Positions 8,939 to 32,000 of a stretch of DNA of 32,000 nt are shown here, in pieces. The position numbers and the translations under genes were made by a program. The notes beneath the pieces are model-generated. The model did not search any database, was not told the origin of the DNA, and worked only from the letters and a program-made list of their open reading frames with translations. Source of the stretch: Cupriavidus necator (lineage in GTDB: Bacteria > Pseudomonadota > Gammaproteobacteria > Burkholderiales > Burkholderiaceae); the NCBI RefSeq assembly GCF_016127575.1, contig NZ_CP066018.1, forward strand, positions 3,120,001 to 3,152,000, given 5' to 3'. Positions within the stretch are counted from its first letter, which is position 1. Each line of letters opens with the position of its first letter.

Positions 8939-10102
8939 ATGCAAGTATTCTGGTTCATCCCCACCCACGGCGACAGCCGCTACCTCGGCACTTCGGAAGG
9001 CGCGCGCGAGGTCAGCTTCGATTACCTGAAGCAGGTTGCCGTCGCCGCCGATACGCTGGGCTACGAAGGCGTGCTGATCCCGACCGGGCGCTCATGCGAA
9101 GACCCATGGGTGGCCGCATCGGCCCTGGCCGCCGTCACGCAGCGCCTGAAATTCCTGGTCGCGGTGCGCCCCGGCCTGATGGCGCCGACGCTGGCTGCAC
9201 GGATGGCGGCAACCTTCGACCGCATCTCCAACGGCCGGCTGCTGATCAACCTGGTCACCGGTGGCGATACCGCCGAGCTGGAAGGCGATGGCCTGTTCCT
9301 GGACCACACCGCGCGCTACGAGGCCTCGGCCGAGTTCCTGCGCATCTGGCGCCAGGTGCTGGCCGCCAGCCATGACGGCGACAAGGTGGACTACGAGGGC
9401 AAGCACCTGAGCGTGAAGGGGGCCACCGTCCTTTATCCGCCGCTGCAGCAACCGCATCCGCCGGTGTACTTCGGCGGTTCGTCGGCGCCGGCGCATGCGC
9501 TGGCCGGCGAGCAGGTCGATACCTACCTGACCTGGGGCGAGCCGCCCGCTGACGTGGCGCAGAAGCTCGACGACGTGCGCCGGCAGGCCGCGCGTCATGG
9601 CCGCACGGTGAAGTTCGGTATCCGCCTGCATGTGATCGTGCGCGAGACCGAAGCCGCCGCCTGGGCTGCCGCGGACGACCTGATCAGCCGGCTCGATGAC
9701 GAGACCGTGGCGCGTGCGCAAGCCGTGTTCGCCAAGATGGATTCCGAAGGGCAGCGCCGCATGGCCGCGCTGCACGCGGGCGGCGCGCGCCGCACGCGCG
9801 AGGCGCTGGAGATCAGCCCCAACCTGTGGGCTGGCGTTGGCCTGGTGCGCGGCGGTGCCGGCACCGCGCTGGTCGGCGATCCGCACACCGTGGCCGAGCG
9901 CATGCGTGAATACGCCGAGCTGGGCATCGACACCTTCGTGCTGTCCGGCTACCCGCACCTGGAAGAGGCCTACCGCTTTGCCGAACTGGTGTTCCCGCTG
10001 CTGCCGCGCTCGGTGCGCGACAAGCTGCCGGGCAAGGTGCTGTCGGGCCCGTTCGGCGAAGTCATGGCGACTGGCATCGTGCCGCGCGCCGCGCAGAGCT
10101 GA
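8939..10102 (+). CDS. ssuD: FMNH2-dependent alkanesulfonate monooxygenase
   Basis: [18 protein letters not shown]...INLVTGGD... is the luciferase-like SsuD signature. It is 387 aa long, a typical length. Confidence 0.95.
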
Positions 10103-25816: not shown

Positions 25817-26026
25817 AAATCTATAAGCCATTGAATTATTGTAAGAAAAAAACTAAGCGAGGACTGCAGATCAATGTTGTTGCAACGCGGGAGGGTTCTC
25901 TACACTCTTATATAAGACTCATGACATGAGGCGCGAAAAACAGCAGGCGACGCAGCCACCGCGACGTAGCCCAGGTCAGGTGATCAACAGATTCTCAGCC
26001 ATCCCCGCATCATCAGGAGAGTGACC

Positions 26027-27322
<1,296 letters not shown>

Positions 27323-27402
27323 CTCTCCTGGTCACCCCCGCCGGAACGTGGGTCCGGCGGTTAAGGAAGGCGTGCGACCATCACGCCTTCTGATTTAGGC
27401 GC

Positions 27403-27440
27403 CGCGCCGTTCTCTCTCAGGGACGGCGCGTTTTTTTATT
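27403..27440 (+). terminator. Rho-independent terminator of aceA (third of three consecutive hairpins)
   Basis: CGCGCCGT (27403-27410), a 12-nt loop, ACGGCGCG (27423-27430), then TTTTTTTATTTT. It is preceded by the hairpins CCGCCGGA/TCCGGCGG (27338-27360) and GAAGGCGTG/CACGCCTTC (27366-27390). Confidence 0.85.
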
Positions 27441-27922
27441 TTCCAATGCTGGGGGCGGGTTAGCGGGTAGCTGTTCAACGGGTGTTCAAAACTCAAACTC
27501 CATGCAGAGTTACCGCCCAAGCCTGGCCGGGTTCACGCCGGCTATTTAGAAGCCTGACGCGGGACAGGTCAATGCCCGCATCTTCCAGAGCGGCGCGCAT
27601 TCTCAAGTTATGTGTGCCGCCCCTTTTGCTTCGTGCCTTACCGCCTTTTCAATTCTTCACAATTGGAAAGTTCTGAAGCGTCAGCGCAGTCCATGTGTCC
27701 GCACGTCTTTGCGGAATAGGGATCCTAACGCGATTTCAGTCTTGCTTAATTCTGTTTTCAGGCGTTTTGGGCTGCGTAATTAGGAATCGTCTGATTTATT
27801 CCCCACTTCGCTGCTCCTATTATCGAGGCCGCGTTGCTGCACTCTCATTGGCTGGTCGATGGACGACCGAGCCACTGGCTGCTGACGGCGGCGACAGTCC
27901 ACTTTCCACGGAGCGTGATTGC

Positions 27923-30373
27923 ATGGGTAGCCGATTGCGGTTTTCCTTCCGTACCGTCACCGTTTCCGGCGACGGTCTGCCGGAACTGTTGGGGCAGCCA
28001 TTGCTGCTGTTCTCCAAACTGTCCGGCACCGAGAGTATCAATTCCCTGTTCGAATACGAACTGGAACTGAAGACGCCCGACGAACGCAACGTGCTATACG
28101 GGCCGGCGGGTGACTTTGATATGGAGGCCATGCAAGGCAAGGAGTTGACCGTCAGCATCGAGCTGGACGGCTCCGGCACCGGTCCGGATGGCGGCTTCGG
28201 CAGCGGCAAGAGAGAGATTACCGGCCTCGTCACGGACGTACGCGGCCCCTACTACGAACACGAACGCATCCTGTACCGCCTGACCCTGCGCCCGTGGCTG
28301 TGGCTGGCCACGCTCACCAGCACCATCCGGCCTTATCAGAACATGACTGTGCTGGAAATCGTGGAGGCGGTGCTCAGCAAATACACTTTCCCGGTCGAGC
28401 GCCGCCTGCTGGATAGCCAGTATCCCAAGCGCCGATTTCAGATGCAGGCCGGCGAGACGGACTACCAGTTCGTGCGCCGCCTGCTCGCGGAATGGGGCGT
28501 GAATTTCCACTGGGAGCATTCGGACGGCCACCACCGCATGGTGTTGACCGATGGCAATGGCGCTTTCCGGAATATCCCCAGCCCTGCCTACCATGCCATT
28601 AGCTGGTATCCATCCTCGGACCGGGCGGACGAGGAACACCTTCACGAATTCGAGGTGCGCGACCGGCTCGTCTCGGGGGCCTGGGCGCAAGGCGATTACG
28701 ACCACAACCAACCGCGCGCCGACCTCAATGTCTGCGCCGCCGACCCGCGCGACACCAGCCACGCGACCTATGAGCTGTATCACTGGCCGGGCGATTACGC
28801 CGAACCCAAGAGCGGCAACGATGCCCGCAAGGAAGGCGAGATGCTGGCGCGCATCAACATGGAACGCCTGCGGCAGCACGGCGTACGGACGCGCGGCAAG
28901 GGTAATGTGCGCGCGATGGCGTCGGGCCATACCTTTACCCTCAAGCGCTTCCTGCGCACCAAGGCCAACTGCGAGTACCTGATTTTCGCCACGCGCCTGC
29001 TGATCGAGGACGTGGGCGAGTTCGCCGGCAGCGGCCAGTCCTGGCGCTGCGAGGTCGAGTTCGAGGCGCAGCCCACTAGCGAAATCTTCCGGCCTGAACT
29101 GGTCGAAAAGCCCTACATCGGCGGTCATCACAAAGCCAGGGTCGTCGGCCCAGCCAATCAGGAAATCTGGTGTGATGACCTGGGAAGGGTGCGCTGTCAA
29201 TTCGTCTGGGACCGCTATGGCAGCTACGACGAGAATAGCTCCTGCTGGATTCGCGTCACCGGCTTCTCCTCCGGCGACCGCTTCGGCAACACGCACCTGC
29301 CTCGCATCGGCCAGGAAGTCATTGTCAGCTATGAGGGTGGCGACCCGGACCGGCCCATCATCATGGGACCGGTCAATAACCGGCTGAACCTGCCGCCGTG
29401 GGATCTGCCGAGCCAGCATGCCTTGTCCGGCTACCAGAGCAAGGAACTGTTCGGCGAAGGCCGCAACCACACGCTTTACGACGATACCCAGGGCCAGCAG
29501 CAGGTGCAGGTCGCGTCGGACCACCAGAACAGCCTGCTGGCGCTGGGCCACAACGTCCGCGTCAACGATTGGGAGGGGCGCAAGGACAAGCGCGGCGAAG
29601 GCTTTGAGCTTCGAACCGATGCGCATGGAGCACTGCGTGCCGCACTCGGCATGCTTATCACCACCTTCTCGCGCCGGAACGCCGAAGGCAACATGATGAA
29701 TGTCAGCGATGTCATTCAACTGATGCAAAAGGCCCTGGATATCGCCAGCACCATGGGCGACAAGGCGACCGAGGCGCAGGCGCAGGATGGCGAACAGCGC
29801 GACATTGCAAGATTGCTGGAAAAGCAGTTTGAGCAAATCCAGGGCGGTGGCGAGCTGAAGGAGTTCACGGCGCCGCACCTGGTATCAGCGAGCCCCGCTG
29901 GCATTGTCTCGACCGCAGCGGGTTCCACGCACATCGCCAGCGGCACGCATACTGCGTTGACTACCGGGGAGCACCTGTCCGTGACCACGGGCGGGGGCTT
30001 CTTTGCCAGCATTCGCAAGGCACTGTGTCTGTTCGTATATGAAGCCGGCATGAAGCTGGTTGCCAACATGGGCGACATCGACCTGCAAGCTCTCAAGAAC
30101 AATATCAACCTGTTGGCAAAGCTTGAAATCAACGCCACTGCCGGGAAGATCAGCCTCAAGGCAAAGGAAGTGCTGCTCGACGGCGGTGGCAGCTACATCA
30201 AGCTGAACGAAGGCGGCATTGAGAACGGCACCAATGGCGGGTGGATCGTGCACGCGGCCAGCAAGAACCTGACCGGTCCCAGCAGTCTTCCGGTGGAGCT
30301 AAAGGCGAGGCAAGTCTGCCTGGAATGCCTGCTCAAGGCGGCCGCACGCAATGCCGCCGTGGTTCCTCGATAA
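27923..30373 (+). CDS. vgrG: Type VI secretion spike protein VgrG/TssI (gp27-gp5 core + DUF2345 + short C-terminal tail; 816 aa)
   Basis: ATG 27923 follows GGAG (27910-27913). N-terminal motifs are LSGTESINSLFEYELELKTPD and YRLTLRPWLWLATLTS. The gp5 OB-fold is GQEVIVSYEGGDPDRPIIMGPVNN. A DUF2345-like beta-helix follows, ending GGSYIKLNEGGIENGTNGGWIVHAASKNLTGP. The track's 27695 start covers low-GC, non-coding-looking sequence. Confidence 0.93.
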   Translation: MGSRLRFSFRTVTVSGDGLPELLGQPLLLFSKLSGTESINSLFEYELELKTPDERNVLYGPAGDFDMEAMQGKELTVSIELDGSGTGPDGGFGSGKREITGLVTDVRGPYYEHERILYRLTLRPWLWLATLTSTIRPYQNMTVLEIVEAVLSKYTFPVERRLLDSQYPKRRFQMQAGETDYQFVRRLLAEWGVNFHWEHSDGHHRMVLTDGNGAFRNIPSPAYHAISWYPSSDRADEEHLHEFEVRDRLVSGAWAQGDYDHNQPRADLNVCAADPRDTSHATYELYHWPGDYAEPKSGNDARKEGEMLARINMERLRQHGVRTRGKGNVRAMASGHTFTLKRFLRTKANCEYLIFATRLLIEDVGEFAGSGQSWRCEVEFEAQPTSEIFRPELVEKPYIGGHHKARVVGPANQEIWCDDLGRVRCQFVWDRYGSYDENSSCWIRVTGFSSGDRFGNTHLPRIGQEVIVSYEGGDPDRPIIMGPVNNRLNLPPWDLPSQHALSGYQSKELFGEGRNHTLYDDTQGQQQVQVASDHQNSLLALGHNVRVNDWEGRKDKRGEGFELRTDAHGALRAALGMLITTFSRRNAEGNMMNVSDVIQLMQKALDIASTMGDKATEAQAQDGEQRDIARLLEKQFEQIQGGGELKEFTAPHLVSASPAGIVSTAAGSTHIASGTHTALTTGEHLSVTTGGGFFASIRKALCLFVYEAGMKLVANMGDIDLQALKNNINLLAKLEINATAGKISLKAKEVLLDGGGSYIKLNEGGIENGTNGGWIVHAASKNLTGPSSLPVELKARQVCLECLLKAAARNAAVVPR

Positions 30374-30394
30374 ATAACCAGGAACAGCAGCTCG

Positions 30395-30967
30395 ATGACA
30401 GAAGAAGAAAGCGTAGTTCATATCTACGTGCTGGCCGATGGCGCCGTGCATCCGACTCGCATTGGTGCATTGCTGCGCGAATCGGGCGCCGATTTTCGAA
30501 ATGTGTATGCCGGCCTGCCCGAAGCCGATGCCGGCGACGCCTGCCTGTTCCTGGCGCGGGTGGACGATCCCAAAGCACCCTGGCTGGCGCAATTCGACGC
30601 GATGGATTTGCGGGCGCCATGCTTCACGCTCATCTGGAGCCGCGTGGACATTGACCGCCTCGCCCGTCATTTGCATCAGTTTCTCGTTGCGGACATTGGC
30701 GAAGGCATGACCGCCCTGATTCGCTACTACGACCCGCGCAACCTGCTGGTGACGATGGAAGTCTGGGGCGACGACATCGTGGAGCGGATCATGCAACCCA
30801 TTCAGCAATGGAAATACCGCGGCTACAGCGAGGAATGGCAGTGCATTGACGGGCCGATGGAGGGCGAGAGCACGCAGGATACGCCGCTTTCCATCCAGCT
30901 TAGCCAGGAGCAACTGGACCGACTGCGGAACACTGCGAGCCGGATCAGTTGCTCGCGGCGCTCGTAG
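30395..30967 (+). CDS. DUF4123 T6SS adaptor/chaperone (Tap/Tec family), N-terminal portion; apparently truncated by a frameshift
   Basis: IYVLADGAVHP...ACLFLARVDDP...LARHLHQFLVADIGEGMTALIRYYDPRNLL is the DUF4123 pattern (yallDaa...RfyDPrvl). Its position directly after vgrG is canonical. The ORF ends in an atypical tail (ASRISCSRRS), while the family-typical continuation is in the -1 frame. Confidence 0.8.
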   Translation: MTEEESVVHIYVLADGAVHPTRIGALLRESGADFRNVYAGLPEADAGDACLFLARVDDPKAPWLAQFDAMDLRAPCFTLIWSRVDIDRLARHLHQFLVADIGEGMTALIRYYDPRNLLVTMEVWGDDIVERIMQPIQQWKYRGYSEEWQCIDGPMEGESTQDTPLSIQLSQEQLDRLRNTASRISCSRRS

Positions 30968-31254
30968 AGGATAGCGTGGTGGATGGGGCAGGTCCCTATC
31001 TCGCGCGCTTCATGGATTTTCTGCCCCGTTACCAGCGTGCCGCCGAGTGGGGGCTGACAGAGCCAGCGGATCGAATGTACTTCTGCGAACTCTCGTACCG
31101 ATACGGCCGCGACTTCGACGCCCACGATGAAATGCGACGCGCCTTGGAAGAGCGTGCTCGTTCCGGGCAAGCCATGATCGCCTGCGCGGATGGGGTGCAT
31201 CCATCCGTCTGGGAGCAGTTGGCGAAAAATGCGAACCGGGAGGTCAACGCATGA
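30949..31254 (+). CDS. ORF encoding what looks like the C-terminal remainder of the DUF4123 adaptor (the frame is open from 30904); if expressed alone, a ~100-aa hypothetical protein
   Basis: The frame is open from 30904 and reads ...CEPDQLLAALVEDSVVDGAGPYLARF...GLTEPADRMYFCELSYRYGRDFDAHDEM.... This resembles the C-terminal half of full-length (~280-300 aa) DUF4123 proteins as I remember them. It has no ATG start (the track uses TTG 30949) and no SD. Its stop overlaps the next gene's ATG (ATGA). Confidence 0.5.
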   Translation: MLAALVEDSVVDGAGPYLARFMDFLPRYQRAAEWGLTEPADRMYFCELSYRYGRDFDAHDEMRRALEERARSGQAMIACADGVHPSVWEQLAKNANREVNA

Positions 31255-31874
31255 AATCCTTGTTCATGTCGGCCTTGATGGCGGTATGCCTCGCGATTCT
31301 GCCAGGCTGCAATCAAAGCTCCGTTGTTGGCACTCTCCCAAACGACGATCCTGACGCCCTGATGTCAGGCGATGTTGAGGGCCTGAACTACACCCCTTAC
31401 TACGTTCACACCTTCAACATAGCGGGGCACGACAACGGCATCGGAGGCGGCGGGCCAAACATTGTTCCGGTAAGACCCGACTATATACCGACAGAGAGCG
31501 GTGGCGCCTGCTGTGGCACGTTTCCGGTCCGCTGGCGGCCAGGGCTAAAGGTCACGGTCCGCTGGATCGCCAACAAGAAACTTGATGGGCACGCATGGGG
31601 TTCCTGGTACAAGGCTGAGGCGGAAATTCCCGAATATGGCACAACCACTTATGGCATGTGGGTCATTTTCCTGCCAGGAGATCGCGTCAAGGTCATGGTT
31701 ATGGATGGAAATGCAAACGGCTACAACAGGGTAAGGGCTCGGCCTGCTGACGACGATCCTTACGTGGCAGTCGGGCGGGTGGACGACGAAGCGAATCGTG
31801 AGGAAGAGGCAGCGCGCTTAGTGAGATTCGGCGAGGTAATTAAGGCGGACCCATCAATCGGAGGGTTGAAGTAA
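31251..31874 (+). CDS. DUF3304-family lipoprotein (putative T6SS immunity-type protein)
   Basis: Has a lipoprotein signal MKSLFMSALMAVCLAILPGC (lipobox LPGC). The body motifs CCGTFPVRWRPGLKVTVRW and YGMWVIFLPGDRVKVMV fit DUF3304 as recalled. GC is lower, with 55-58% hand-counted on two lines. Confidence 0.75.
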   Translation: MKSLFMSALMAVCLAILPGCNQSSVVGTLPNDDPDALMSGDVEGLNYTPYYVHTFNIAGHDNGIGGGGPNIVPVRPDYIPTESGGACCGTFPVRWRPGLKVTVRWIANKKLDGHAWGSWYKAEAEIPEYGTTTYGMWVIFLPGDRVKVMVMDGNANGYNRVRARPADDDPYVAVGRVDDEANREEEAARLVRFGEVIKADPSIGGLK

Positions 31875-32000
31875 TGAACGTATTGCGTTGGCCGGAGAAA
31901 ATGCCAGAGGGCGGCCTGCTTTCGCCCGCGCCATTGAGGACCCGCACGGCAAATGCGACCTGATCGAGTTGTTTTATCTCGTCATGAGCCTTGGGTTCAT
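31870..32000 (+). pseudogene. DotU/TssL-like reading frame without a start codon (possible 5'-truncated remnant), running off the window
   Basis: The frame opens after TGA 31867-31869 and reads SNERIALAGENARGRPAFARAIEDPHGKCDLIELFYLVMSLGF. The DLIELFYLxxSLGF block resembles the conserved LLELfYlCLsLGF(eGrY) core of DotU/TssL. About 80-90 N-terminal residues of the domain are missing. Only about 43 codons are visible. Confidence 0.35.

Follow-up and report, generated by a model that had tools for sequence, protein, structure and literature searches.

The 32,000-nucleotide (nt) stretch of the Cupriavidus necator chromosome analyzed here (as a whole termed the window) carries near its right end a DUF4123 adaptor gene and a DUF3304 lipoprotein gene downstream of a vgrG gene. 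This region is very probably the 3′ part of a vgrG-linked auxiliary type VI secretion system (T6SS) island that was acquired horizontally, was built around the lipase Tle1 and has decayed, leaving a Tli1-like immunity gene behind. This is an orphan immunity gene in the plain sense: its open reading frame (ORF) is intact and the locus lacks the cognate toxin. Direct reading of positions 29800–32000, together with the ORF list, gives four successive plus-strand frames, namely a long ORF ending at 30373, 30395–30967 (190 amino acids, aa), 30949–31254 (101 aa, in a different frame) and 31251–31874 (207 aa). An earlier note on this DNA had recorded that adaptor frame and DUF3304 gene share an ATGA overlap, with the adaptor stop at 31254, and that no room is left for an effector. 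This is correct, as the stop codon TGA (31252–31254) overlaps the start codon ATG (31251–31253). The family assignments of the note are confirmed as well. Frame 30395–30967 matches Pfam DUF4123 (PF13503) with 2.5e-22 and 79.7 bits (cut-off 25.8), the last frame matches DUF3304 (PF11745) with 2.1e-22 and 79.8 bits (cut-off 22) over profile positions 1–97 of 97, and the predicted Tle1/DUF2235 partner is found as PF09994 in the orthologous islands.

Intact islands were sought on the contigs that carry the nearest homologues of the adaptor and the DUF3304 protein; compared loci and contigs carry L labels, and the source genome contig is L001. Intact islands occupy the same chromosomal site in L011 (another C. 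necator chromosome, CP196450.1), L012 (Cupriavidus sp. GA3-3) and L007. They consist of vgrG, a DUF4123 gene (286 aa), two to three DUF3304 genes, a Tle1-like gene (746–747 aa) and a DotU-like gene (334 aa), placed between the isocitrate lyase gene and the series M48-Usp-LysR-HAD-malate synthase. The module is also found in Cupriavidus malaysiensis (L008), there at another chromosomal site. The Tle1-like protein of the intact islands matches PF09994 (112.9 bits) and PF22137 and contains a GFSRG motif at about residue 201. The flanks of the three same-site islands are 95–99% identical to the window, their vgrG, adaptor and first DUF3304 genes are orthologous to those in the window, and the window is collinear with them except for a deletion. 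In contrast to the window, they keep two to three DUF3304 genes, tle1 and the full DotU-like gene; L007 has an additional PAAR gene, and vgrG is split in L011.

The deletion is defined best by comparison with L011, the closest strain. BLAST aligns window positions 27251–31915 with L011 2681–7344 at 98.5% identity, collinear across the adaptor–DUF3304 junction, and 31924–33450 (window-equivalent numbering beyond 32000) with L011 11573–13097 at 98.6% identity. Absent from the window is L011 7345–11572. These 4,228 bp comprise DUF3304 copies 2 and 3 and tle1 and extend 558 nt into the DotU-like gene. The deletion thus amounts to ~4.2 kb relative to L011 and to 3.0 kb relative to L007. Alignment to the tle1 starts of L011, L012 and L007, which read MSVLRWPEKMPEGGLLS, identifies a remnant of tle1 in the window: the first 17 codons (MNVLRWPEKMPEGGLLS) are retained at 31874–31924 on the plus strand, and their ATG overlaps the stop codon of the DUF3304 gene (TAATG). 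Beyond these 17 N-terminal codons nothing of the Tle1 phospholipase (PF09994, GxSxG) is left in the window.

According to the BLAST ends and base-level reading, the junction at 31924/31925 connects codon 17 of tle1 with codon 187 of the DotU-like gene, the two sharing 1 nt (G); the left homology ends and the right homology begins at 31924. The DotU-like side starts with ARAIEDPHGKCDLIELFYLVMSLGF... and represents the 3′ half of the DotU/TssL-like gene, which runs on the plus strand from 31924 to the window edge at 32000 and continues to window-equivalent 32370. Remnant and fragment are mutually out of frame. The fragment covers only positions 103–204 of the 205 positions of the Pfam DotU profile (1–204 in the intact orthologue) and aligns to residues 185–334 of the intact 334-aa protein. 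In the intact relatives a CTGCTG hexamer adjoins both breakpoints, which suggests that the deletion may have arisen by illegitimate recombination.

Deletion of the effector with retention of an orphan immunity gene had been one of three explanations offered in the earlier note. Its outcome agrees with the structure of the locus, whereas the site does not: the deletion lies downstream of the lipoprotein gene (31924) and not between adaptor and lipoprotein. The note had alternatively placed an intact effector downstream of the lipoprotein gene, past the window edge. This is the position expected from all intact relatives, in which tle1 directly follows the DUF3304 genes. However, the 10 kb downstream in the source genome contain a DotU-like fragment of 123–160 aa, then genes for an M48 peptidase, Usp, a LysR regulator, a HAD hydrolase and malate synthase and other housekeeping genes; no effector gene is present within this distance. 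With 17 codons of tle1 left, an intact effector past the window edge is refuted for this genome.

A second lesion affects the adaptor. The DUF4123 (Tla1-like) adaptor gene spans 30395–31254 on the plus strand and is a pseudogene composed of frames 30395–30967 and 30949–31254. Its N-terminal part is recognized by Pfam and its full extent by comparison with full-length homologues; ORF 30949–31254 has no Pfam match of its own. Joining both frames into a frameshift-repaired protein of 286 aa provided the query for the adaptor search. The homologues (284–302 aa) span 97–100% of the repaired protein, and the best of them is 93% identical and exactly 286 aa long. DNA alignment with two intact orthologues places the frameshift at 30925/30926, where one A is absent: the window reads GACTG-CGGAAC, as compared to GACTGACCGAAC in L007 and L008. 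Accordingly, the gene measures 860 nt in the window and 861 nt in L007, and the adaptor gene of L011 is intact (286 aa). The 101-aa ORF aligns with residues 178–286 of intact adaptors. The adaptor is therefore one gene split by a single-base deletion, and the ~100-aa ORF is its C-terminal third. An intact two-domain adaptor ORF, with an N-terminal DUF4123 and a C-terminal effector-binding domain, is absent from the window. Contact with the effector is made by this C-terminal third in Tla1 of Pseudomonas aeruginosa (PMC13133936). The intact adaptor of L007, 93% identical to the repaired protein, reaches 70.3 bits with the NCBIfam model for Tla1, under the equivalog cut-off, and is thus a distant relative.

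Single-base indels are a common type of error, and both lesions might be ascribed to sequencing or assembly. Positions 30395–32000 are found without any mismatch in six assemblies, one complete NCBI chromosome and five derived from separate public sequencing runs. Thus, the lesions are no assembly artefact, and the chance that they stem from errors is negligible.

The earlier note had assumed that the effector gene normally follows the adaptor and that the DUF3304 gene comes last. An effector directly after a DUF4123 adaptor is indeed the order present in many other adaptor/effector families. For the family considered here, gene order was surveyed in 16 loci annotated by phmmer. Eleven of these came from a scan of a genome collection with the adaptor alignment; their number is small because a single peptide pattern was used, and the set suffices for gene order and not for frequencies. 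DUF3304 genes lie upstream of tle1 in all related loci surveyed. Among the adaptor-first loci of Cupriavidus and Paraburkholderia, all eight with a readable next gene have DUF3304 directly after the adaptor, with one to seven DUF3304 copies followed by Tle1. The comparison of homologous islands that the note had proposed thus reveals no effector at the adaptor–DUF3304 junction, and its premise is contradicted by the eight loci and by P. aeruginosa PAO1. The overlap of adaptor stop and DUF3304 start is likewise present in tle1-bearing islands (L007 5068/5071, L008 10861/10864, L011 and L012). From the vgrG-DUF4123-DUF3304-Tle1 order of the eight related loci and PAO1, the abutment with its ATGA overlap is the ancestral arrangement and the norm, unrelated to the deletion.

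A clean excision of an effector from between adaptor and DUF3304 gene would find its only support in the recollected effector-after-adaptor order. It conflicts with the overlap shared by the tle1-bearing islands, with the collinearity to L011 right across this junction and with the true tle1 remnant, which sits after the DUF3304 gene. Such an excision is refuted by this collinearity.

The DUF3304 (Tli1-like) lipoprotein gene at 31251–31874 on the plus strand is intact and, by Pfam match and comparison with the sister strains, orthologous to the first copy of their arrays. The encoded protein is 96% identical to copy 1 of L011 and 80–82% identical to the other paralogues. A hybrid origin from copies 1 and 2 of L007 (5′ 35 nt copy-1-like, body copy-2-like) was considered and is unneeded, as the gene is a plain orthologue of L011 copy 1, collinear at 98.5%. 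Reading of the translation predicts a lipoprotein signal, MKSLFMSALMAVCLAILPG, ahead of the cysteine of the lipobox LPGC. With the NCBIfam model Tli1a_fam (NF053804) the protein scores 54.6 bits (cut-off 110), which makes it a relative at family level and not an equivalog. When the Protein Data Bank was searched by sequence with this protein as query, chance matches alone were obtained (E about 0.8). The identical DUF3304 protein is encoded on many contigs. A GGGAGG motif resembling a Shine-Dalgarno sequence is located at 31238–31243 on the plus strand, 7 nt 5′ of the start codon. It is presumably functional, and translation of the DUF3304 gene would not need to rely on the broken coupling to the adaptor.

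The charged C-terminal tail reported in the earlier note is present (DDEANREEEAARLVRFGEVIKADPSIGGLK). The note had called it unusual. However, in all 92 homologues the conserved RPxDDDPYVxxG is followed by a tail that varies and is mostly charged, and the version DDEANxxEE...KADPSIG is common to seven protein clusters, of which the named or traced ones belong to C. necator or close relatives. The tail is thus not unusual and is conserved in the DUF3304 paralogues of this clade.

As a third explanation, the lipoprotein and/or the 101-aa product had been credited with a new, toxin-independent role, so that the effector-less state would be ancestral or functional. The intact DUF3304 ORF with its good Shine-Dalgarno motif and the missing Pfam match of ORF 30949–31254 are compatible with this proposal. 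On the other hand, the ~100-aa product corresponds to adaptor residues cut off by a one-base deletion that is not found in the relatives, the stub of tle1 and the truncation of the DotU-like gene mark the effector-less state as derived, and no feature separates the lipoprotein from the paralogues encoded beside tle1. A new role thus gains no support and is very unlikely, the decay of a Tle1 island being the far better account of the locus.

At the head of the island, vgrG (27923–30373, plus strand) is intact and encodes 816 aa, the same length as its orthologues in L007 and L012. ORF 27695–30373 has Pfam matches to Phage_GPD (1e-86), Phage_base_V, T6SS_Vgr and DUF2345 and an NCBIfam match to TIGR03361 (401 bits); the VgrG models of both collections are well over their cut-offs. 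The GC content of the island is 0.60 as compared to 0.677 in the rest of the window, which fits with horizontal acquisition. The island is inserted in chromosome 1 of this H16-like C. necator strain, between aceA and the M48 peptidase gene. The isocitrate lyase gene aceA occupies 26021–27322, and a 600-nt spacer of lower GC content between aceA and vgrG (27323–27922) forms the left island edge. With malate synthase encoded ~4 kb downstream, the island interrupts a glyoxylate-cycle neighborhood. The remaining window contains housekeeping genes (3HB-oligomer hydrolase, ClpB, sulfate/sulfonate transport and a CysB-like LysR regulator).

By analogy with the P. aeruginosa homologues, the adaptor of an intact island would load the Tle1 lipase onto the VgrG spike, and the DUF3304 lipoproteins (Tli1) would neutralize Tle1 in the periplasm. 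The island in the window has two lesions. One is the deletion of tle1 from codon 18 on, which also removed any additional DUF3304 copies and codons 1–186 of the DotU-like gene; the other is the one-base deletion that frameshifts the adaptor. With tle1 deleted and the adaptor frameshifted, toxin delivery by this island is no longer possible. What is left is one intact DUF3304 gene with its own predicted ribosome-binding site, downstream of an intact vgrG. We infer that this gene is still expressed and protects against Tle1 from kin with an intact island. Selection may perhaps have kept the intact vgrG and the single DUF3304 gene, so that the lineage, though disarmed, would be immune and survive Tle1 attacks by its kin; this is a tentative and rather doubtful suggestion. 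For vgrG, the two adaptor halves, the DUF3304 gene and the DotU fragment, the ratios of nonsynonymous to synonymous substitution rates (dN/dS) derive from 6–24 substitutions per gene relative to the closest strains and are uninformative on selection or relaxation (vgrG relative to L012, 0.15).

Nothing contradicts the structural interpretation; the limits concern its functional part. The dN/dS of the DUF3304 gene relative to its orthologue is 0.35, calculated from 15 differences, which are too few to show selection. Through the frameshift, translation of the adaptor ends 284 nt upstream of the DUF3304 start, and any translational coupling via the ATGA overlap is consequently lost. Furthermore, the decay looks recent, and all exact copies of the sequence belong to one strain lineage that was resequenced many times. 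The path of the deletion is ambiguous. Either a multi-copy ancestor underwent a single deletion, or the DUF3304 array collapsed first and a tle1–DotU deletion came later; the two paths are indistinguishable, because the 5′ end of tle1 is repeated after each DUF3304 copy.

The DUF3304 arrays of the relatives (2–7 copies) are tandem duplications of a unit that comprises the 3′ end of the adaptor gene, DUF3304 and the first codons of tle1. Stubs of tle1 and DUF4123 are found between the DUF3304 copies in L007 (5682–5830), L011 (7303–7380 and 8001–8160) and L016 (10794–15927). Some of the downstream copies in L007, L011 and L012 have lost their own ATG (ATT in copy 2 of L007). These are called from the ATG of the tle1 stub, which adds an N-terminal extension of 25–45 aa before the lipoprotein signal, and the copies extended in this way may be non-functional. 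Other DUF3304/Tle1 islands exist in Cupriavidus genomes.

The vgrG gene of L011 (3352–5801) is split into ORFs of 119 and 701 aa in a strain with intact tle1. Compared with the lesions in the window, this indicates that different strains inactivated different parts of the same island. The PAAR gene (93 aa) between tle1 and the DotU-like gene is polymorphic; it is present in L007 (8707–8988) and L008 (14699–14980) and absent from L011 and L012.

Adaptor-first Tle1 islands end in a conserved DotU/TssL-like gene. Its product measures 334–349 aa in called genes and as much as 550 aa when read from stop to stop, and matches TIGR03349 with 181 bits, above the cut-off. The gene is located at 8975–9979 in L007, 14967–16016 in L008, 11015–12019 in L011 and 11638–12642 in L012, and at ~18495–20147 in L016, ~15658–17013 in L019 and ~15344–16714 in L024. 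It occupies several different sites in the chromosomes and thus moves together with the module, rather than being a relic of a neighboring core cluster. We found no account of a TssL paralogue functioning in an auxiliary module of the Tle1 type. The DotU/TssL-like gene, truncated in the window, may contribute to Tle1 delivery in a way not yet described.

The best-characterized counterpart is the vgrG4a island of P. aeruginosa PAO1, which has the order vgrG4a (PA3294), tla1 (DUF4123), tli1b, tli1a (DUF3304) and tle1 (PA3290); experimental evidence summarized for this system identifies the DUF3304 proteins as Tle1 immunity proteins (PMC13133936). The Cupriavidus islands share its gene order and families, with an adaptor, a duplicated DUF3304 gene and the effector in last position. 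One of the duplicated immunity genes has been proposed to be a pseudogene in PAO1, too (PMC13133936). The two systems are distantly related in sequence, as is evident from the low scores with the Tli1a and Tla1 models given above (54.6 and 70.3 bits), and the Cupriavidus islands have a DotU-like gene and sometimes a PAAR gene after tle1. In contrast to PAO1, tle1 is deleted and the adaptor frameshifted in the window.

Tle1 modules of Burkholderia and Paraburkholderia (L020–L022 and L025) consist of the same families and likewise have DUF3304 before tle1. They differ from those of Cupriavidus in that the adaptor follows tle1 (vgrG - DUF3304 xN - tle1 - DUF4123 - PAAR). The Tle1–Tli1 pair of B. 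thailandensis, reportedly described by Russell et al. in 2013, is grouped with these Burkholderia-type modules. In Paraburkholderia lycopersici (L013/L022, 387–10281) the Tle1 module is situated within a T6SS core cluster, between tssF and tssG, and contains in this order vgrG, a 98-aa ORF, two double-length DUF3304 genes (428 aa), tle1, DUF4123 and PAAR.

Decay of the kind seen in the window is well known from the sister genus Ralstonia, where 23.5% of 1,066 vgrG-linked auxiliary clusters have decayed via deletions, frameshifts and insertions of insertion sequences (PMC11481896). Of the 25 cluster types there, 13 have structural variants with orphan immunity genes, both Tle1 types included (PMC11481896). 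As in the window, lesions hit vgrG or toxin genes and immunity genes are kept in the Ralstonia solanacearum species complex (PMC11481896). The Tle1-type clusters aux6 and aux11 carry DUF3304 immunity genes (PMC11481896). Genus and insertion site differ from those of the window. A literature search for T6SS in C. necator retrieved only work on strain JMP134, which is silent on T6SS activity in the H16 lineage.

Thus, the window adds one further example of an already well-documented decay of auxiliary clusters, which is no surprise for a specialist, and outside annotation its significance is small. In C. necator genomes of the H16 type, 30395–30967 and 30949–31254 should be merged in annotation into a single DUF4123 pseudogene; the short downstream DotU ORF is a gene fragment, and the DUF3304 gene is an orphan, Tli1-like immunity gene left from a Tle1 island that has decayed. 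For the reading of T6SS loci, the lesson is that the immunity genes of Tle1 modules precede the effector; an adaptor that abuts DUF3304 is therefore expected and no sign of loss. C. necator strains with an intact or a decayed island at one locus may provide a natural system for testing protection by orphan immunity genes.

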